Assembly: GCA_031262625.1 (NCBI GenBank) | Contig: JAISHJ010000007.1 | Location: forward strand, 516 to 64,515 | DNA: 64,000 nucleotides | Origin: Ruminococcus sp. | Lineage (GTDB): Bacteria > Bacillota > Clostridia > Oscillospirales > Ruminococcaceae | Reading direction: 5' to 3' | Made by a program: the position numbers and the translations under genes | Notes under the pieces: model-generated | Told to the model about the DNA's origin: nothing | Seen by the model: the letters and a program-made list of their open reading frames with translations, nothing else | Databases searched by the model: none | Shown: one piece after another, positions 1,354-48,278 of the stretch | Layout of the letters: each line of letters begins with the position of its first letter | How positions within the stretch are numbered: the first letter of the stretch is position 1

Positions 1354-1599
1354 CTCAGAATCTTGAAAATCGAATATGAAACAACAGGTATTTCAACCCT
1401 CTTGTGAGTGCCACGACCGCCCGTTTTTACGGAGTGCGAGCGCGTGTAGGTAGCACCTACCCTTTTTAAGGAAAGCACGGGGGACGATTAGACGGTGAGC
1501 GAAGGCTCTCGTTTAGGACAAGTCCGTATCTGTTGTCGCCGAAAGGCAAATTTAAAAAACCTAACGTTAAGACATTTTATATTAACGGAGGCAGTAGCA

Positions 1600-1815
1600 A
1601 TGGACTACATACCAAAAATCAAATTCGTGAAACTCAAAGAAGCTTCACAAATGTTCGGAGTCAGCGAACACTATATGCGAAAACTTGCTCTTTCAGGCAA
1701 TATAACGGCGATAAGACCGGGAACGAAGAACGGGAAAATTCTCGTAGATATTCATAGCTTAGAGGAATTTTTCAGTTGTCAAACCTGTAAAGCACCCGTT
1801 TTATCAAAATTATAA
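1600..1815 (+). CDS. Excisionase-like helix-turn-helix DNA-binding protein (Xis/MerR-type HTH)
   Basis: The product reads MDYIPKIKFVKLKEASQMFGVSEHYMRKLALSGNITAIRPGTKNGKILVDIHSLEEFF, typical of small excisionase-family HTH proteins. A GGAGG RBS lies 9 nt upstream of the ATG at 1600. The longer track ORF starting at 1495 is probably an over-extension. The gene sits directly upstream of the integrase. Confidence 0.7.
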   Translation: MDYIPKIKFVKLKEASQMFGVSEHYMRKLALSGNITAIRPGTKNGKILVDIHSLEEFFSCQTCKAPVLSKL

Positions 1816-1916
1816 AACATACCCACTGCGAATTTTACACATTAAACCGTTGACATCTGCAACGCTTTATGTTATAATAATTTCACAGGGGTATGTCGTG
1901 AAAGAGGTAATTTTTT

Positions 1917-3077
1917 ATGGCATATACAAGAAAACACGGCGAAGGCTATGAAATTTGCGTTTCGTGTGGGTTTACCGCGAAAGGCAAGAGAAAGCAGCTT
2001 TATCGCCACTGGACACCCGACAAGGATATGACACCAAAACAAGTCGAGAAGGAGTTGACACGCCAAGCGGTTCTCTTTGAGGAGGAATGCAACAACGGCT
2101 TCCAGACCACAACAACTAAGTTTGAGACGTTCGCCGAAACGTGGATAAACGACTATGCGCCTTTGCACTTAAAATCAACGACATTTGAGAGAATCGCCAA
2201 AGTCAGAAAACGCGTTTATCCAATCCTCGGACATCTCAGAATGGACAAGATAACACCGCGACACATTCAAGCATTCGTAAACAACCTCTCAAAGCAAGGT
2301 GCTAACGAACGAACGGGCGAACCGCTTGCACCCAAAACTATCAAGCATAACGTGACATTCATATCTGACGTTTTCAGCTACGCGGTCGATATGGGCATTT
2401 TGCAGACGAACCCTTGTGCGAAAGTCAAGTACCCAAGGGGAGAGGCGAAAGAAAAGAACGTCTACACGCCGGAGGAAATGACATCTTTGCTCATAAAGCT
2501 ACAGAGCGAACCGCTGAAGTATCGCACGTTCTTTACGCTAATGGCGTACAGCGGATTCCGTAGAAGCGAAATGCTGGGCTTAGAATGGAAAGACATTGAT
2601 TTCGCTACAAGCACAATCACTCTGAAACGCACGTCCAACTACACAAAGGAAAAAGGCACTTACACCGACTCAATGAAAACGAAGCGTTCAAGGCGTTCGG
2701 TAAAGTTCCCGAAAATTGTTATGGACTTGCTTTCGGAGTTCAAGGAATCGCAAGACGAGGAAATGCTTACAATCGGCGAGAGCTGGCTTGAGAGCGACAG
2801 ACTGTTCGTGCAATGGAACGGCGAGCCTATGTCAAATAACACACCATACACTTGGTTAAAACGCTTTTGTGAACGTAACGACATTCGCTTCTGTGATATT
2901 CACAGCTTCCGTCATTTTGCCGCTTCGGCTATGATAACAAGCGGTATCGACTTACTCACCGTATCAAGGACGTTAGGGCACAGTCAACCCTCCACAACAT
3001 CAAACATCTACGGACACGTTTTTGAGGAATCTTCGGCACGAGCTTCCGAAGCGATAACAAGCGTAATCGGACTGTAA
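1917..3077 (+). CDS. int: Site-specific tyrosine integrase (phage integrase family)
   Basis: This 386-aa protein has a SAM-like N-terminal region and a C-terminal catalytic domain. Motifs seen are GFRRSEMLGLEW (catalytic Arg) and HSFRHFAASAMITSGIDLLTVSRTLGHSQPSTTSNIYGHV (HxxR ... H ... Y). Confidence 0.9.
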   Translation: MAYTRKHGEGYEICVSCGFTAKGKRKQLYRHWTPDKDMTPKQVEKELTRQAVLFEEECNNGFQTTTTKFETFAETWINDYAPLHLKSTTFERIAKVRKRVYPILGHLRMDKITPRHIQAFVNNLSKQGANERTGEPLAPKTIKHNVTFISDVFSYAVDMGILQTNPCAKVKYPRGEAKEKNVYTPEEMTSLLIKLQSEPLKYRTFFTLMAYSGFRRSEMLGLEWKDIDFATSTITLKRTSNYTKEKGTYTDSMKTKRSRRSVKFPKIVMDLLSEFKESQDEEMLTIGESWLESDRLFVQWNGEPMSNNTPYTWLKRFCERNDIRFCDIHSFRHFAASAMITSGIDLLTVSRTLGHSQPSTTSNIYGHVFEESSARASEAITSVIGL

Positions 3078-3243
3078 AAATCGACTTTCAAGTTTACGAC
3101 AAACCGCGAAAAGATAAATAAAGTTGAAATAGGCATATACACGGTTTTGGAACTGTGGGCAAATTGTGGGCAAGGCGGTTTTCGAGGAAAAGTAAAACCC
3201 CGCGAAGCCTTTACTACAAAGCCTTCGCGGGATTTCCAAATGC

Positions 3244-3325
3244 TGCGAGTAATGGGACTTGAACCCATACGTCATTCGACACACGCCCCTCAAACGTGCC
3301 TGTCTGCCAGTTCCAGCACACTCGC
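3244..3325 (-). tRNA. tRNA-Leu (anticodon GAG, type II with long variable arm)
   Basis: The reverse complement is GCGAGTGTGCTGGAACTGGCAGACAGGCACGTTTGAGGGGCGTGTGTCGAATGACGTATGGGTTCAAGTCCCATTACTCGCA. The acceptor stems pair. The T-arm is GGGTTCAAGTCCC. The anticodon stem is CACGT/GCGTG with loop TTGAGGG. CCA is not encoded. Confidence 0.85.
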
Positions 3326-3593
3326 ATTTAGCTGTCATAAACAAGGGGCGGCGGATTGCCCGCCTGACAGCTTAATCATTATATCATAGTAGAAGTAATA
3401 AGTCAATAGGGAAAAATAATTTTACAATTTGTTAAAATATGAACAAACAATTACCTTAGCGGTGAACAGAAAAATGCTAAGAAATACTCCCCGCACTGTT
3501 ATCGGATATACTCCAACTCTGAATAGGTTTGCTATCAGCCATCCTCCGCCGCTGTTCATGTCAGGCATCTATCACTCAAAGTGTATCGGGAAG

Positions 3594-41853: not shown

Positions 41854-41887
41854 ATCCTCGTAACCTTTCGGTTACGAGGATTTTTTC
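41854..41887. terminator. Bidirectional terminator shared by the tRNA-Gln pair and the convergent MCP gene
   Basis: ATCCTCGTAACC-TTTC-GGTTACGAGGAT, followed by TTTTTT and preceded by AAAA. Confidence 0.85.
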
Positions 41888-43578
41888 TAATTTACCTTGA
41901 AGACGTTTGCTTGTTCGGTCAGGTTTGATGAAGTTTCCTTTAGTTCCACCGACAGTGTATTAATTTTATCTATATCATTGAGGTTTGAAGCTAAGACATT
42001 GGAGAGGTTGTCAATATCGCGGTTTATTGACTCAATCGTAAGGTTGAGTTCCCTCATTTCGCTTGAAAGTTCAAGAATACCTGAATTAGAAGCCTTTACG
42101 TTGTCGGAAATCTTATCAAAATAGCTTTCAGCTTCCGAACAGACCGCCGCACCGGCAACGGCTTTCTCAATCGTGATGGAAATAAGTTTCTGACTGTCCT
42201 TAGCCGCCTGTGCACTCTTTGCGGCAAGGTTTCTGACTTCCTCCGCAACGACAGCAAACCCTTTTCCGTGAGCTCCTGCACGCGCCGCTTCAACCGAAGC
42301 ATTAAGTGCTAAAATATTGGTCTGAAAGGCAATATCGTCAATAAGCTTAATTACCGAGCCGATCTGCTGACCTGATTCTTTTATGTCCGAGACAGCGGAG
42401 GAGAGTTCCTCCATCTTTTGCTTGCCTTCATCGGTAACGTCAGCGGTTTTCATGCAGTTTTCAGCTTCAGTTTCAGCTTTTCCTGCAATGTTATTGATTT
42501 CTTTTTGGAAATCAGTTGTTGTTTCCTTAATAAGTCCGACAGAATGCACACCGTCATTTGCGTTTACGGTAAATTCTTCCGTTGCTCTGTCGAGGTCGTA
42601 TGTATTGCCGCCGAGGGAAGAAGCGTACGCGGTAATCTTTCCGATTAACTCGCGAAGGGATTTCTCCATTGCCGCAAGCGATTTTCCGACAATATCGTTT
42701 TGGGTCCGCACTTCAATCTCCGCAGTAAGGTCGCCGGAAGCTATCCGACTGATTTCGGAAGACTGTTTTTCGTCTACTTCAATAAGTGCGGCAAATGAGC
42801 GTTTAAGTTCTGAAATTTCGTTATTACCGGTGATTTCGGTGATTTTTACTCCGAAGTTTCCGGAAGCAATCGCCTTCGCGAAGCCTGTAAGTTCCTTTAT
42901 CGGCGCGGCAATTTTCCGACGGATTAACGCTGATATGACAATTATTTCAATAATAAGAAGAGCAATCGCACTCGCGGTGCTTACAATTACAAAACTCGAC
43001 ATTTCGTCGTAAACCTGTTCAATAGACATATCAAGTCCGACACCTGCGACAACCTTGCCGTCTGAATTTCTTACCGGAGCATATCCCGAAAGACACATTC
43101 CGTAATCGCCGCTGTCATATATTCCGCCGTGGTAATATTCGCCTCTGCCGATAACGGAATCGAATAATTCTGTATCGAAAACATCGGCGGAATCCTCTTC
43201 CCAAAAGGGAATTGTGCCGTCACGGTCGTCGGCGGACATATAGTAGTGGGTATTTCCGTCGTCGTCAACAGGCGCCATTACGTAAAGATAAATGGCGTTA
43301 TTTGCTTCAAGCGTAGCAAGAGCGTTGTCAAGGCTTTTTTTCTGTGCTTCCCAAGCCGATAATTTTTCGGGAGGAATTTCCCCTGCGGCGATAATTTCTT
43401 CCGCAAGATCGCCGTCAATAAATGCCGCCGCACTCATTGCGCACATTTCGGCGGTATACCCGACAGAATCAGTCTCCATATTATAAGATGCAATGGTTGT
43501 AATAATTATGAGCATCAAAGCAGTAAGAATAATAGCTCCCGCTGATATGACGGTTACCATTTTAGAAACTGAATTCAT
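41887..43578 (-). CDS. Methyl-accepting chemotaxis protein (Cache-like sensor, HAMP, MA domain)
   Basis: An N-terminal TM and extracellular sensor are followed by a second TM, a HAMP domain ([20 protein letters not shown]) and the signalling hairpin ([45 protein letters not shown]). Confidence 0.9.
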
Positions 43579-43766
43579 GTGCTTACCTCAAATTAAATAA
43601 AATATCTATAATTATTATATAATATTTTAATTTAAATGTCAAGTTTTTTTGTAATATAAACTATAAATTTATGTAACAAATTAAAGGAATAAATGCAAAT
43701 CCTAATAAAATACTAACAAAAATTTGATTGATTTTTGTTAATACTAAACAAATTTTGAATTAACTA

Positions 43767-43795
43767 TTGACAATCCCGCAAAATAATGTTATACT
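43767..43795 (+). promoter_or_regulatory. Near-consensus extended -10 promoter reading antisense into the recombinase gene, toward the switch and downstream operon
   Basis: TTGACA (43767-43772), then N17, then TATACT (43790-43795), with TGT immediately upstream of the -10 (TGnTATACT). It overlaps the recombinase stop codon. Confidence 0.5.
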
Positions 43796-44373
43796 GACTC
43801 GAAACCATAAGTCAGCTTTTTATAAGCAAGATTTTTATCTTCCTGCGTTATTCCGATGTATCGGCGTGTTATGGCGAAGGACGAATGGTTGTAGATATCC
43901 ATAATTACCGCAAGCGAAGCCCCTTTTTTCCAAAGGTGGTAACCGAAAGTCTTCCGGAGAGTGTGGCACGAAACGGGAACATTTACGCCGGCATTTTTCG
44001 CGGCAGTCTTTAGTATACGATATGCCTGAATACGGCTTATCGGGTGCGGACGAGTAGGGTGAGAAAATACATAGTCGTGAGACGCGGGCGAGGTTTCCTT
44101 AAACAGCATAATAAGGCAGTCCCGCAAAATCGGATTTACTGCTACGATTTTATGCTTTTTGGTCTTTTTTTCGATGATTTCAAATTCTGCACGGAGTTTG
44201 CCGGTCTCGAAATTATAAATATCTCCCCAACGCAGACGTAAAATATCGCTTATCCGAAGCGCTGTAAAGATTCCGAACTGAAAAAGCGCAAGGTTCCGGC
44301 GTTCTTTTCTCGAGGCAAAGTAGGAACAAATCATTTTAATCTGGCGTTTATCGCGGATGGGTTGCGTAGTCAT
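43789..44373 (-). CDS. Small (194 aa) catalytic-core-only tyrosine recombinase (invertase-like)
   Basis: The product contains RNLALFQFGIFTALRISDILRLRWGDI (catalytic Arg) and CHTLRKTFGYHLWKKGASLAVIMDIYNHSSFAITRRYIG (HxxR ... H ... Y). There is no N-terminal arm or core-binding domain. An AAGGAG RBS precedes it. Confidence 0.85.
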   Translation of the reverse strand: MTTQPIRDKRQIKMICSYFASRKERRNLALFQFGIFTALRISDILRLRWGDIYNFETGKLRAEFEIIEKKTKKHKIVAVNPILRDCLIMLFKETSPASHDYVFSHPTRPHPISRIQAYRILKTAAKNAGVNVPVSCHTLRKTFGYHLWKKGASLAVIMDIYNHSSFAITRRYIGITQEDKNLAYKKLTYGFESV

Positions 44374-44398
44374 AGCTTTTTCTCCTTGTTTTTATATT

Positions 44399-44427
44399 AA
44401 TGTAACAGTTTTCATAAACTGTTACAT
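44399..44427 (+). repeat. Recombination site 1 (lox-like: inverted arms around an asymmetric core)
   Basis: AATGTAACAGTT-TTCATA-AACTGTTACAT. It is the exact 29-bp reverse complement of site 3 and lies 26 bp upstream of the recombinase start codon. Confidence 0.75.
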
Positions 44428-44452
44428 AAAAACACAAGCATGACTTGCATTA

Positions 44453-44481
44453 AATGTAACATATTTCATAATCTGTTACAT
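44453..44481 (+). repeat. Recombination site 2 (same orientation as site 1, three mismatches)
   Basis: AATGTAACATAT-TTCATA-ATCTGTTACAT. Its own arms extend to TAAATGTAACA/TGTTACATTTA. Confidence 0.65.
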
Positions 44482-44505
44482 TTAACAACTTTTCAAAGAT
44501 ATAGA

Positions 44506-44530
44506 ACAGGCGGTTTGCCTGTCTTTTTTT
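44506..44530 (+). terminator. Rho-independent terminator inside the putative invertible segment (plus-strand oriented in this assembly)
   Basis: ACAGGC-GGTTT-GCCTGT followed by CTTTTTTT. Confidence 0.7.
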
Positions 44531-44601
44531 ATTTTCCTGACGTTATTTGCGAATTAATTCAAATATTATGTAGGCTTAGGTATATACTAACACGGACAAA
44601 C

Positions 44602-44649
44602 GCCGTCAATGTAACAGTTTATGAAAACTGTTACATTGACGGCTTTTTT
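44602..44649 (+). terminator. Site 3 plus GC clamp plus T-run: recombination site doubling as a strong intrinsic terminator
   Basis: GCCGTCAATGTAACAGTTT-ATGA-AAACTGTTACATTGACGGC (19-bp stem) followed by TTTTTT. The inner 29 bp (44608-44636) are AATGTAACAGTT-TATGAA-AACTGTTACAT, which is the reverse complement of site 1. Confidence 0.7.
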
Positions 44650-44724
44650 GTGCTTATAGGGAATTATATTCTTATTATACACATATTTAGGAAATATGTC
44701 AAGTGAAATCTGGAGGATATAACA

Positions 44725-45543
44725 ATGGGAGCATTTATAATTCCGGATAACGAATTATATCATATGGCTAATAATCTTGAAAGTAGTTACGGATGGGGAC
44801 TATCAAACGAAACTGTTGCTAAAATACATCAAGGTATACTTTATATGCAAATCGTTCTCGGTTTACATAATTCTTCGCTTTACAGAAAAGCCATGGCAAT
44901 TAAAGAAAAAGAGTTTATGGACGAAGCGATAAATGTTAACCAAGAAGACAGACACAAACGTATCCGAAAAGTGAACTTTTGGTTCACTTTGTTATGGATA
45001 ACTGCAATTGTATCTTTATTCTTTGGTGTTATATTATCGTTATATAAACCTGCACAATTTCTCGGAGGAATAATTCTTCTGCTTTGTCTGTTATGTATTT
45101 TAGGTGCTATAGTAACCGCAATTATAAAGCTTATTCTTAAAGGCAGGGCAAAAAAAGACGAGAAAACAATTTCATATTACAACAGAAAAATATCAGAATT
45201 TAACCCGATGGATCTTATGAACTTATGTTCAAGAATTATCTATCTCAATATGCAATATGACTTTGATTTATCTGTGATATGTGATAAACTCGGAGTTTCG
45301 ACTTCAGCTATGCGTACGAATTTTAACAAGGCTTCCGGCGGCGGAAGTACATGGATTGGCGGTGGAAGTCTTGGTCTTGTAGGTCTTGGTCTCGGTCTGA
45401 CTGCAATCAGTAAACTAAATGCTGCTGAAAAAAATTCACAATTCAACAGCAGAATGCAAGTGCTTCAAAGTTATTTGTTTTACAATAACGTAGCTGAATA
45501 TTTTAATAACATAGAACAACAATTGTACTACAATAATAGATAA
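44725..45543 (+). CDS. Hypothetical membrane protein (two central TMs, Gly-rich C-terminal segment)
   Basis: A GGAGG RBS precedes it. The TMs are FWFTLLWITAIVSLFFGVILSLY and GGIILLLCLLCILGAIVTAII. The Gly-rich stretch is GGGSTWIGGGSLGLVGLGLGL. I recognise no family. Confidence 0.6.
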   Translation: MGAFIIPDNELYHMANNLESSYGWGLSNETVAKIHQGILYMQIVLGLHNSSLYRKAMAIKEKEFMDEAINVNQEDRHKRIRKVNFWFTLLWITAIVSLFFGVILSLYKPAQFLGGIILLLCLLCILGAIVTAIIKLILKGRAKKDEKTISYYNRKISEFNPMDLMNLCSRIIYLNMQYDFDLSVICDKLGVSTSAMRTNFNKASGGGSTWIGGGSLGLVGLGLGLTAISKLNAAEKNSQFNSRMQVLQSYLFYNNVAEYFNNIEQQLYYNNR

Positions 45544-45560
45544 AATTTTGGAGGATTATC

Positions 45561-45890
45561 ATGAAAAAAAGGTTTTTCGCAATTTTGGCAATGGTTTGTC
45601 TGACATTAATACTTTTGACTGCGTGCGGTGGACTAAGCGGTACATACATCTATGTCGGTGACAGTTACGGCATTTTAGGGAGCGAACTTGAGTTTGACGG
45701 AAACGAAATGAAATGGGGTTACAGTGTCACTAAATATAAAATCAAAGGCGATGAATTCAGACTGGTAGATTCAATATCAGAAATAAGGTTCAGCTATTCA
45801 AAAAAAGGGGATTCAATATTTATTGACGAAAATGAATATGCAAAGGAAGGCTCAGATCGCCATAAAGAATGGGAAGACGAGCAGGAATAA
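45561..45890 (+). CDS. Hypothetical small lipoprotein
   Basis: The signal peptide and lipobox are MKKRFFAILAMVCLTLILLTACGG. A GGAGG RBS precedes it, 17 nt after the previous stop. Confidence 0.6.
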   Translation: MKKRFFAILAMVCLTLILLTACGGLSGTYIYVGDSYGILGSELEFDGNEMKWGYSVTKYKIKGDEFRLVDSISEIRFSYSKKGDSIFIDENEYAKEGSDRHKEWEDEQE

Positions 45891-45927
45891 GGTCAGCAAT
45901 CTATAATTATATGAAAGGCATTTTACT

Positions 45928-46716
45928 ATGGATGAAAAAATTGAAGTTAAGGCTGTAGAAAAGACAGCTCCGGATGAACCCTCTTCCGTACCTAACGCAC
46001 AACCTACAGAACAACTTGCAGAAAAGCCTGTAGATAAACCAAAGCCTATACTTCCTCAAATAAAACCGGAAGAATCAAAGTCGTTTTTACTGCAATTTCT
46101 GAAAAATCCGGCAGCAGCACTTCAATCCGGTGCACTCGGCTTGACGGAATGTTTGATCACTTTAGGGGTTCGTACAATCGGTCTGGTCGTCTTAATGGTA
46201 TATTTCAAGTCTTTATATTTCGACTCGGAATATTCAGACTATTTCGGCGATATTTATAACGAGTATATTGGTATGAGCGGCGATTTTACAAAATCATACA
46301 CGCTTTTGTCCGGTGCGGCTGAAATGGTTATCTCGTTAACCCAAAATGAATACGTTGCAATAATTTTCGGCGGTTTATTCATGTCCTTGATGCTTAGCAT
46401 TGCTCTATACATATCATCTTTTCTGTTTGGCAAAATAATATTCAAAGGCAAAACAGAACCTAAAAAGGGTTTAGTTAATCTTTTTACAGGCATAGAATCG
46501 GCATTACTTCCATTTACAGTGTTGTTCTTAATTGCTGTTTTTGTAAATATGTTTTCGCCGGTTTTTGCAGTAATACTTTCTCTTATTGGTTTAATTTTCA
46601 GTATATGCGTTTGCTTTTCAGCTTATATGAAAATATTTAATATTGATATCAACAAGGCGGTGTACACATCAGTACTCAGCTTTTCAACACTGGCAATTAT
46701 TCTAACGGTGTTTTAG
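45928..46716 (+). CDS. Hypothetical polytopic membrane protein with Pro-rich N-terminal tail
   Basis: The N-terminus is PDEPSSVPNAQPTEQLAEKPVDKPKPILPQIKPEE, followed by about 5 TMs. The topology is loosely Yip1/DUF-like, but no motif was identified. Confidence 0.55.
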   Translation: MDEKIEVKAVEKTAPDEPSSVPNAQPTEQLAEKPVDKPKPILPQIKPEESKSFLLQFLKNPAAALQSGALGLTECLITLGVRTIGLVVLMVYFKSLYFDSEYSDYFGDIYNEYIGMSGDFTKSYTLLSGAAEMVISLTQNEYVAIIFGGLFMSLMLSIALYISSFLFGKIIFKGKTEPKKGLVNLFTGIESALLPFTVLFLIAVFVNMFSPVFAVILSLIGLIFSICVCFSAYMKIFNIDINKAVYTSVLSFSTLAIILTVF

Positions 46717-46927
46717 CCGTGATATTATAACAACGGCACAATAACCTTCAAATCCACCAGAGCAGGCACAGTAGCACTCTCTATCACAAGCGCAAACTAA
46801 GTTCAACATAATATTCAGTATTCATTCCAACAAAAAATGCCTCATATGAGGTATTTTTTGTGGTAATATACTGCTTAACGAAAATACAAACGCCCTGTAG
46901 TGAAGTACCACAGGGCGTTTTAGAGTA

Positions 46928-47330
46928 TGGAGATGACGGGAATCGAACCCGTGTCCGAGAACATTTCAGGAGGGTTTTCTCCGGGCGCAGCACCGATTCA
47001 AAGTTCCCGACAGCGAGGGTATCGGCACAGACCCTAACCGTCGGTAGCCTGTAATACGTTTTTCGGTTACAGGCGTATACCGAAAAACGTGGACTGCTTT
47101 TGTCTCGCCTGTCGGAAGCCGCAGTACTCAACCGATTTCAGACGCCGGGGGTTAAAAAACGCCCGGAACTGCTAACTTACGCACGGTTACCCGCGCAATA
47201 AGTTAGGCAGCCATTAACTGAGGTTGTTCGTCGTTTAAATTTATAAACGTAGCGCATCGTTTCGGAGATAAGCGCAATCCTCCGCCCGCTTACCCAACTT
47301 ACGCTTCCCCGTCGAAACCTTTACATCCCC
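46928..47330 (-). ncRNA. ssrA: tmRNA (ssrA)
   Basis: The minus strand starts GGGGATGTAAAGGTTTCGACGGGG and ends GGACACGGGTTCGATTCCCGTCATCTCCA. This is a tRNA-Ala-like acceptor with a G3:U70 pair. An internal tag-like frame reads ...AAC GAC GAA CAA CCT CAG TTA ATG GCT GCC TAA. A terminator hairpin ACGCCCTGT...ACAGGGCGT lies just downstream at about 46890-46920. Confidence 0.9.
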
Positions 47331-47544
47331 TTACAAGATGGCAGAGACGAGAATACAGAAAAGTCATTTCTCTTTTCTGTTATTCCCACGCGGAAATAGG
47401 TTGGATATTGCCGATAAATCTATCGGCTTAAATAGTATAATAGAACTTTGTGAACAATTAAAGCACAAATTTTGAACAAATAAAATTAGAGGTGCTTCCG
47501 ACACACCCTGTGCCGGACCGCTCCTCTAATTCGATACGCTAAGC

Positions 47545-47786: not shown

Positions 47787-48278
47787 TTATTCCTGTTCGG
47801 GAATATCTTTTTTCGCAGTTTTAAGCGTGTCGATTACCTTTTTCATGTCGTCGTAAAGATAGCCGTATCGCTTAGTAATTTCTTCAATTCCGCTGCTTAG
47901 ATTATCTCTGAAATCGTCAAGCTTCATAACTGCTTCCGAAATTTTAACAACCGAAGCGTTAGTGGTTTCGGCAAGATTACGAACCTCCGAAGCGATTACG
48001 GAAAAGCCCTTGCCGTTTTCTTTTACACGATTTGCTTCAATTGAAGCATTAAATCCCAAAATTTTGACATTCATCGCGATATTTTGTATGGCAATCATCG
48101 ACTTTTCAGTCTGACGAAGCGCTTTAAATGCTTCTTCGGCAGTCTTCTCGAGCCTCTCAAAATCATCTCTCGTCTCGTCAAGGTAGAAAATATCATCCTT
48201 TAACATATGTATGGCGTTGTTTATCTGTTCTTGAAGCCTGTCACCCGTATGCACGGACAATACCATGTTTTCTTCCAT
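47787..48278 (-). CDS. Soluble mini methyl-accepting-chemotaxis signalling-domain protein (163 aa, no sensor/TM/HAMP)
   Basis: The hairpin-tip motif is IAMNVKILGFNASIEANRVKENGKGFSVIASEVRNLAETT, flanked by short helical segments only. Confidence 0.75.
   Translation of the reverse strand: MEENMVLSVHTGDRLQEQINNAIHMLKDDIFYLDETRDDFERLEKTAEEAFKALRQTEKSMIAIQNIAMNVKILGFNASIEANRVKENGKGFSVIASEVRNLAETTNASVVKISEAVMKLDDFRDNLSSGIEEITKRYGYLYDDMKKVIDTLKTAKKDIPEQE

Follow-up and report, generated by a model that had tools for sequence, protein, structure and literature searches.

A predicted phase-variation switch with invertible transcription terminators beside a tyrosine recombinase gene of Ruminococcus sp.

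The 64,000-nucleotide stretch of Ruminococcus sp. DNA analysed here (contig JAISHJ010000007.1, positions 516 to 64,515; hereafter the window) contains a switch region at 43579-44724, between a methyl-accepting chemotaxis gene (41887-43578, minus strand) and a plus-strand three-gene operon. This region, which includes a tyrosine recombinase gene, is probably a phase-variation switch that gates read-through transcription by invertible terminators. A first-pass annotation of the same DNA had proposed that the segment flips terminators rather than (only) a promoter. The sequence supports the core of this proposal, that inversion acts on intrinsic terminators and less, or not at all, on a promoter: the terminators are orientation-specific in silico, the closest relative among the matches listed has the same layout, and in 25 related loci clamped sites and terminators are enriched while promoters are not. 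The sequence features, their orientation dependence in silico and their recurrence in relatives were computed directly.

Two plus-strand terminators, T1 and T2, had been described in the first-pass annotation. Both were picked up by our terminator scan. T1 is formed by ACAGGC-GGTTT-GCCTGT (44506-44522) followed by CTTTTTTT (C and seven T), and its RNA fold has an energy of -9.6 kcal/mol (z = -3.15). T2 is built on a recombination site: the palindrome of site 3 is extended by the clamp GCCGTCA...TGACGGC to a 19-bp stem with 8 GC pairs and a 4-nt loop (44602-44643), directly abutting TTTTTT at 44644-44649. Its fold reaches -32.9 kcal/mol (z = -9.6), and none of 200 shuffled sequences folded as well. 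The inner half of the clamp, GCCGTCA, lies inside the invertible segment, and the outer half, TGACGGC, is fixed. A perfect 7-bp extension of the palindrome has a chance of about 4^-7, and the 1.6-kb region contains 6 terminator-like sites compared to 1.0 +/- 1.0 in shuffles. T1 (7 pairs, 4 GC, T7) and T2 (19 pairs, 8 GC, T6) both have the sequence make-up of intrinsic (Rho-independent) terminators, and are predicted to be active in termination. The sites, T1 and T2 are real, non-random sequence features.

Three 28-bp sites, all located between the recombinase start codon and the operon, carry the same 8-bp asymmetric core TTTCATAA between 10-bp inverted arms (ATGTAACAGT). Inverted arms around an asymmetric core are the usual anatomy of a tyrosine-recombinase core site. 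Sites 1 and 3 form an inverted repeat of 29 nt with 100% identity, and the distance between sites 2 and 3 is typical of the family. The palindrome of site 2 is lengthened by TTAAA/TTTAA in the assembled orientation. No further match to the sites was found elsewhere in the 64-kb window, nor in 100 shuffles. The flanks of site 1 (44387-44440) contain imperfectly complementary A/T-rich sequences, TGTTTTTAT...ATAAAAACA, with 25-nt arms that are 80% complementary in the assembled orientation. This hairpin, 26 nt upstream of the recombinase start codon, folds at -16.2 kcal/mol (z = -5.3) and could affect recombinase translation or serve as an operator.

The 194-aa tyrosine recombinase is the presumed invertase of the segment. 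It scored 92.7 bits against PF00589 (Phage_integrase; cut-off 27.1), placing it in this family, and its catalytic residues R40, H137, R140, H163 and Y172 are invariant in the alignment with its relatives. In its size, and in having no domain other than the catalytic one, the protein is similar to FimB and FimE. It is not a member of the FimB/FimE-type invertases as defined by NCBIfam (NF007370/NF007371), with 35.9 and 40 bits for a cut-off of about 221. Assignment to Xer was rejected too, as NCBIfam scores were far under cut-off, and sequence matches in the PDB were limited to generic Xer or integrase catalytic domains.

The effect of inversion was assayed by building the rearranged states explicitly. 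State A is the assembled orientation, B results from inversion between sites 1 and 3, C from inversion between sites 2 and 3, and D is obtained from B by inversion between site 1 and the relocated site 2. In these simulations, the left flank of site 3 becomes CTTGTGTTTTT after the crossover with site 1, and GTTGTTAA after the crossover with site 2. The clamp is lost in the flipped states, leaving the 12-bp A/T-rich stem of the site, with the U-tract 7 nt away. The terminator scan detected T2 in state A only, and not in B, C or D. In A and D, T1 faces the operon; in B and C, it is carried by the recombinase strand. The in-silico reconstruction thus reproduced the arithmetic given by the first-pass annotation for the crossover between sites 1 and 3, namely the replacement of the clamp, the short stem detached from its U-tract, and the transfer of T1 to the minus strand.

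A point absent from the first-pass annotation is that the recombinase gene is divergent from the operon. Because of this divergence, plus-strand terminators need a plus-strand promoter upstream, and the transcript to be terminated must begin at 43767-43795 and cross the recombinase gene antisense. Promoters were called as consensus matches scored out of 12. A single strong plus-strand candidate, P_as, was found upstream of the switch, with its -10 element overlapping the recombinase stop codon. The predicted P_as transcript runs antisense across the whole recombinase open reading frame (ORF) and on toward the switch and the operon. The scan detected no terminator-like site between P_as and T1. 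As assembled, there is no plus-strand promoter of at least 9/12 inside the segment, or between site 3 and the Shine-Dalgarno region of the operon. P_as faces away from a perfect promoter of the chemotaxis gene (43642-43614, minus strand), and this divergent promoter region seems to have the recombinase and switch module in the leader of one of its arms. An isolated half-site, TTTATGTAACAAATTA (43664-43683), similar to the left arm of the sites, is located between the chemotaxis-gene promoter and P_as. Its second arm is absent, and it may be the relic of a layout with a site beyond the recombinase gene. On the opposite side of the switch, P_L would fire leftward, its transcripts crossing site 3 and the segment in the direction of the recombinase gene.

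Use of P_as, termination and inversion at the window locus, like the assignment of the ON and OFF states, are predicted from sequence. Transcription of the operon would start at the fixed promoter P_as, cross the recombinase gene antisense and enter the switch. The assembled state A would be OFF, with the transcript stopping at T1, and T2 acting as a back-up for transcripts reading through past T1. To reach the ON state, the recombinase would invert the DNA between site 3 and either site 2 or site 1. This would move T1 to the other strand and split the T2 clamp, and the transcript would reach the operon. Less firmly, the flipped T1 would stop leftward P_L transcripts before the recombinase gene, so that expression of cargo and recombinase may then be set reciprocally. 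In state A, the only obstacles to P_L transcripts would be the T2 hairpin, whose U-tract on the minus strand is poor (GUUUGUCC), and a weak reverse T1. With three sites, four arrangements would be available, with two, one or no active terminators; state D, which keeps T1 without T2, would give an intermediate level. Constant antisense transcription from P_as would hold recombinase expression low, and the switching rate would be low as a result.

Table 1. Features of the predicted switch and its cargo operon (window coordinates).
Feature	Coordinates	Strand	Description
P_as, fixed promoter-like site	43767-43795	plus	TTGACA-N17(TGT)-TATACT, 11/12, extended -10
Tyrosine recombinase gene	43789-44373	minus	194 aa, catalytic domain only; PF00589 E = 3e-26
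Site 1	44400-44427		ATGTAACAGTTTTCATAAACTGTTACAT; 10-bp arms ATGTAACAGT around asymmetric core TTTCATAA; 26 nt from recombinase start codon
Predicted invertible DNA, site 1 x site 3 crossover	44414-44622		Simulated
Site 2	44454-44481		Core orientation as site 1; 3 arm mismatches; 155 bp start to start from site 3
Predicted invertible DNA, site 2 x site 3 crossover	44468-44622		Simulated
T1, predicted terminator	44506-44530	plus	Free-standing hairpin, 6-7 bp, 4 GC, then T7; inside segment, facing operon as assembled
Weak internal promoter candidate	44558-44586	plus	TTCAAA-17-TATATA, 8/12, lacks conserved final -10 T (-7 T); low confidence; not reported by scan
T2, predicted terminator	44602-44649	plus	GCCGTCA + site 3 (44609-44636) + TGACGGC + T6
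Site 3	44609-44636		Exact reverse complement of site 1
P_L, perfect consensus promoter	44674-44702	minus	TTGACA-17-TATAAT, 12/12; just outside site 3
Cargo operon, three genes	44725-46716	plus	Cargo of predicted switch
Cargo gene 1	44725-45543	plus	272-aa membrane protein
Cargo gene 2	45561-45890	plus	109-aa lipoprotein
Cargo gene 3	45928-46716	plus	262-aa polytopic membrane protein

Related loci were collected from genomes and metagenomes. The genome scan gave four informative loci in metagenome-assembled genomes of termite-gut-type Clostridia, with recombinases 50-63% identical to that of the window. The metagenome scan gave at least 570 relatives among 600 candidate stretches, of which the best 80 were kept. 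A near-identical locus was found in neither scan, the best protein identities among the matches listed being 63% and 51%. Most of the kept metagenome loci share sites of the form TG[TC]AAC-N14-GTT[AG]CA, in two layouts: in layout A, as in the window, both sites are upstream of the recombinase gene and about 140 bp apart, and in layout B the sites flank the recombinase gene itself.

The closest relative among the matches listed, L002 (recombinase 63% identical), has three sites with the same spacing as in the window. It contains an internal hairpin followed by T6 on the cargo strand, at the position and on the strand of T1. The hairpin sequence is CCAAGCCG-N-CGGCTTGG compared to ACAGGC-N5-GCCTGT, and the differences are compensatory. 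At the distal site of L002 there is a CCG/CGG clamp, and CT6 comes next on the cargo strand. An antisense promoter is located directly after its recombinase stop codon, and its cargo includes lipoprotein homologues. Antisense promoters just 3' of the recombinase stop were also found in L003 and L004. The recombinase gene of L003 (2984-3558) appears to be frameshifted near its 5' end, the ATG at 2984 being out of frame with the 159-aa ORF at 3079-3558. Either the assembly is in error or the gene is a pseudogene.

Family-level tests were performed on 25 layout-A loci with TGTAAC-N14-GTTACA sites. In 14 of the 25, the DNA strictly between the sites contains a terminator-like hairpin; the value for shuffled segments is 9%. 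The direction of the hairpin differs among loci, some having it face the recombinase and others having it face away, as expected for a feature carried on invertible DNA. Clamps were analyzed by measuring the palindrome extension of each site into its flanks, as assembled and after simulated inversion. An extension of at least 5 bp (up to 10) is present in one orientation only in 14/25 loci, with almost none in the other orientation; when flanks were mixed between loci as a null, the value was 7%. Clamp sequences vary between the sites of one locus and between loci but complementarity is kept, which argues for selection on the hairpin rather than on a protein-binding sequence. A U-tract (5 or more T among the 8 nt that follow the stem) is found on the strand leaving the recombinase, toward the cargo, at 14 of 15 clamped recombinase-proximal sites, and on the opposite strand at 3 of these 15. 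The internal terminator is co-oriented with the clamped-site terminators in every locus that is closed as assembled and carries one, namely the window locus (WIN), L002, L009, L019, L025 and L029. L016 is open as assembled, and its internal terminator points toward the recombinase. Promoter-like sites are not enriched inside the segments of the 25 loci.

An antisense promoter scoring at least 10/12 within 130 nt of the recombinase stop was detected in 11 of the 25 loci, mostly with a TG extension; the corresponding values are 4/25 for the sense strand and 4.8% for shuffles. In most of the loci without such a promoter, a cargo-strand gene ends just beyond the recombinase stop (at 1-22 nt in L017, L041 and L042, for example). 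In these loci, the cassette is inside an operon. In most loci, the recombinase gene and the gene past the distal site are divergently oriented. The latter is of highly varied function: lipoproteins, solute-binding proteins, response regulators and enzymes were all seen as cargo, at times in the middle of an operon. In L016, the cargo (1510-2661, minus strand) looks by eye like an IS200/IS605-type TnpB/OrfB protein; if so, these cassettes can also adjoin mobile-element genes. P_L has no such family pattern. Its counterpart in L002, read by eye, is weaker (TTGCAT-17-TATAAT), and no consistent promoter was found inside the segments or outside the distal sites of the 25 relatives. Therefore the role of P_L is proposed for the window only.

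Segments of this recombinase family invert in nature. In a human-gut cluster with a 45% identical recombinase, a segment of about 295 bp, located about 110-400 nt upstream of the recombinase gene between sites ATGCAACATTTTATAGTAAAATGTTACAT, has one orientation in some assemblies and the opposite one in others, at 93-97% identity (L047 versus L069, for example). One orientation is represented by L047, L051, L052, L057, L060, L061, L063 and L065, and the other by L068, L069, L074, L077, L085 and L086. The palindrome of the proximal site is lengthened in one of the two orientations, to 23 pairs versus 18. The adjacent divergent gene of this cluster resembles, by eye, a CsrA-type regulator gene. 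Among the TGTAAC-type loci, homologous segment ends, consisting of a clamp half and a T-run, are found at the distal site in open loci and, inverted, at the proximal site in closed loci; the pairs L010/L076, L012/L043 and L019/L041 have such swapped ends. Layout B is seen in L023, L031-L034, L037, L081 and L082, and also in L036, L038 and L040, with segments of about 0.75-0.95 kb. The flanks of L036 (also L038) and L040 are swapped and inverted at 86-98% identity, indicating that a segment containing the recombinase gene also occurs in both orientations in nature.

For the window locus, exact-protein look-ups with the recombinase and the first cargo protein returned two short contigs and nothing else, both from a second sample of the strain (Logan assembly, SRR14710920). 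The recombinase contig stops inside site 2, at 44480, and the first position of the operon contig, 44621, falls in the site 3 core. Together, the two contigs omit exactly the segment between sites 2 and 3. Breaks at these two sites are what a population of mixed orientation tends to give, and are at most suggestive here. Breakage of a de Bruijn assembly by the site 3 palindrome alone was ruled out at k=31, the shared repeat being 29-30 nt long and the loop asymmetric.

Several observations weigh against the proposed terminator switch. The second orientation of the window locus was not found in the genome or metagenome scans. The contig ends in SRR14710920 (44480 and 44621) are 9 and 2 nt off the positions predicted for a k=31 branch at an inversion between sites 2 and 3 (44471 and 44619), and this sample seems thinly covered, with short contigs. 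Read in reverse complement, T1 is still scored as weakly terminator-like (tail CTATATCTTT), so that it may be leaky in both directions. P_as is a consensus match, and 14/25 relatives are without a counterpart of at least 10/12. In L021, the clamp and the internal terminator are discordant in orientation. L002 has an 11/12 promoter-like site (2709-2682, minus strand) outside the switch and directly upstream of the cargo gene, which would make its cargo partly switch-independent, or which may be a chance match in A/T-rich DNA. Finally, two promoter-like 9/12 sites on the minus strand of the window segment turn toward the operon on inversion, and may leave room for a promoter contribution.

These last two sites, TTGAAA-17-GATTAT (44496-44468) and TTGACG-17-TATATA (44609-44581), are the candidates for a classical promoter inversion, in which the operon promoter would reside on the minus strand of the segment, a flip would aim it at the operon, and T1 and T2 would merely insulate the OFF state from stray read-through. 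Promoter invertons are the common design (fimS, Bacteroides invertons), and both candidates do turn to the plus strand in simulated inversions. The first-pass annotation had itself pointed to a weak internal plus-strand promoter, TTCAAA-N17-TATATA, as a possible contribution; this match exists, but reaches only 8/12 and is without the final T of the -10, and the same caveat applies here. However, both 9/12 candidates are weak, one being without the -7 T and the other having GATTAT as its -10. Matches of this quality are as common in the sequence as in shuffles (10 vs 5.9 +/- 2.1), and neither candidate is conserved in L002. After a flip between sites 1 and 3, the 44609 candidate would sit upstream of the weak reverse T1 hairpin. 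Moreover, the segments of the 25 relatives are enriched in terminators and clamps whereas they are not enriched in promoters. We consider promoter inversion an unlikely explanation of the switch.

The flipped terminators could instead chiefly control the recombinase, similarly to the orientational control of fimE. P_L transcripts would reach the recombinase gene in the assembled orientation only, and the flipped T1 would shut the recombinase off, biasing or locking the switch. P_L is a 12/12 match aimed into the switch, states B and C place T1 (hairpin and T7), on the recombinase strand, between P_L and the gene, and no strong promoter was found between site 1 and the recombinase start. A phase-variable terminator on fimE, cited in PMC2784873, is a precedent. 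This explanation leaves both the operon-facing T2 and the bias of U-tracts away from the recombinase (14/15 clamped sites) unexplained, and P_L is inconsistent across relatives. It is rather unlikely to be the chief role of the terminators, and is in any case compatible with the gating of cargo read-through rather than a true alternative to it. We find it very unlikely that the extended palindromes act at the DNA level (by longer binding of recombinase or accessory protein, a cruciform, or control of directionality) or are a by-product of the origin of the sites, with incidental T-runs and an operon regulated elsewhere. The clamp part TGGGC/GCCCA does recur beside the TGTAAC arm in many loci and could reflect protein recognition, both sites are extended in the same orientation in L009, L029, L043, L008 and L014, and some distal-site extensions are without a U-tract (L009, L029, L043). 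Yet clamps differ while still pairing (GCCGTCA/TGACGGC, GGTGCTA/TAGCACC, AGCAGCCAA/TTGGCTGCT), and the flank-mixing null, which retains the shared TGGGC, gives 7% compared to the 56% observed. The strand bias of the U-tracts (14/15 vs 3/15) and their co-orientation with internal terminators are expected of RNA terminators and not of DNA sites.

The first-pass annotation had described a recombination site doubling as half of a terminator as not being the standard inverton design. The arrangement does differ from that of a promoter between inverted repeats, but the principle of an invertible terminator has a published precedent in the Clostridioides difficile cwpV switch (Cdi1; Emerson et al. 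2009; PMC2784873). The cwpV promoter is outside and upstream of a 195-bp invertible region with flanking inverted repeats. Termination is proposed for the OFF orientation, at a predicted stem of 9 bp (4 GC pairs) with a poly-U, located where the invertible DNA joins the left inverted repeat; base changes weaken this stem in the ON orientation. Inversion is catalysed by the tyrosine recombinase RecV (PMC2784873). As in cwpV, the predicted switch combines a tyrosine recombinase, a clostridial gut host and a surface-protein cargo, with the ORF outside the invertible region and the operon promoter predicted to be outside as well: the segment bounded by inverted repeats is placed between P_as (43767-43795) and the ORF at 44725. 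A terminator is likewise predicted at the repeat/segment junction in one orientation only, T2 being restricted to state A while T1 switches strand.

Unlike in cwpV, the palindromic recombination site itself forms most of the stem, with the split GC clamp as orientation sensor (19 bp vs 9 bp), and a second, free-standing terminator (T1) rides in the segment and changes strand. There are three sites and four arrangements, and the recombinase gene is adjacent and antisense in the regulated leader, whereas RecV is encoded elsewhere and serves several switches. The arrangement also recurs as a module beside many unrelated cargos. The new elements are the stems built from sites, the stacked terminators and the recombinase gene antisense in the regulated leader. 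The repeat of the RecV flagellar switch, AAGTTRCTATWTTACAAAAAA (PMC5386303), was compared as possible kin of the sites, and has no resemblance to TGTAAC-N14-GTTACA.

Other phase-variation systems share some of these features. The Escherichia coli fim recombinases FimB and FimE are also catalytic-domain-only proteins of about 200 aa, encoded beside an invertible element of about 300 bp, and the orientation of fimS also alters a terminator on the recombinase (fimE) transcript, as cited in PMC2784873. However, fimS carries the fimA promoter, so that primary control is by promoter inversion, and the fimE terminator is Rho-dependent rather than an intrinsic hairpin formed from a recombination site. 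In the C. difficile flgB flagellar switch (Cdi4), transcripts from a fixed promoter have a long 5' leader with the invertible element in it, and control is exerted after initiation. This switch differs in that Rho factor, rather than intrinsic terminators, mediates regulation, according to PMC7446863, and in lacking an adjacent recombinase gene. Promoter invertons of gut Bacteroidota and other bacteria (PhaseFinder-type) are short regions flanked by inverted repeats near genes for surface proteins or lipoproteins, some with an adjacent invertase. The promoter is in the segment there, whereas terminators, and not promoters, are enriched here and in the relatives. We found no description of this cassette family or of clamped-site terminators in the open-access literature, which is weak evidence of absence. 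A recent inverton survey lists roles for terminators as future work only.

Other features of the neighborhood were also noted. An 88-aa ORF across the switch (44440-44706) is without coding support and was treated as spurious. An Rfam scan of 43400-47400 revealed no riboswitch or leader RNA in the switch, its matches being a transfer-messenger RNA (tmRNA) and chance hits only. The tmRNA gene (ssrA; 46925-47330, minus strand; RF00023, 120 bits) is convergent with the end of the cargo operon and has a terminator at 46920-46888 (minus strand). As tmRNA 3' ends are classic integration sites of islands, the operon and switch may be part of an inserted element. Further downstream, a 163-aa ORF (47787-48278, minus strand) covers only part of the signalling domain of a methyl-accepting chemotaxis protein, and is probably a truncated chemoreceptor gene or a gene with a wrongly called start.

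Altogether, these results can be read, tentatively, as those of a large family of portable phase-variation cassettes in gut Clostridia, with at least 570 metagenome relatives. Five features would define such a family, and their joint occurrence is possible, though somewhat doubtful: a recombinase gene antisense in the regulated leader or operon; palindromic sites that form the stems of orientation-dependent terminators through split GC clamps; a free-standing directional terminator on the invertible DNA; a single flip that reciprocally gates cargo (from P_as or an upstream gene) and recombinase (from P_L); and three-site versions with four states of graded termination. Reciprocal gating would amount to a self-biasing toggle, built from a reversible stop signal and a pair of convergent promoters.

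Surveys of invertible DNA mostly seek promoters between inverted repeats, and terminator switches are known essentially from cwpV. The design is compact, about 0.9 kb comprising the recombinase gene, two or three 28-bp sites and one or two hairpins. Being also directional and self-contained, it is attractive as a part for synthetic biology, and as a test case for the coupling of recombinase expression to the state of the switch. If the family works as proposed, annotation centred on promoters would miss or misread such switches, and invertible terminators would be a common, modular means of phase variation of diverse genes in gut Clostridia.

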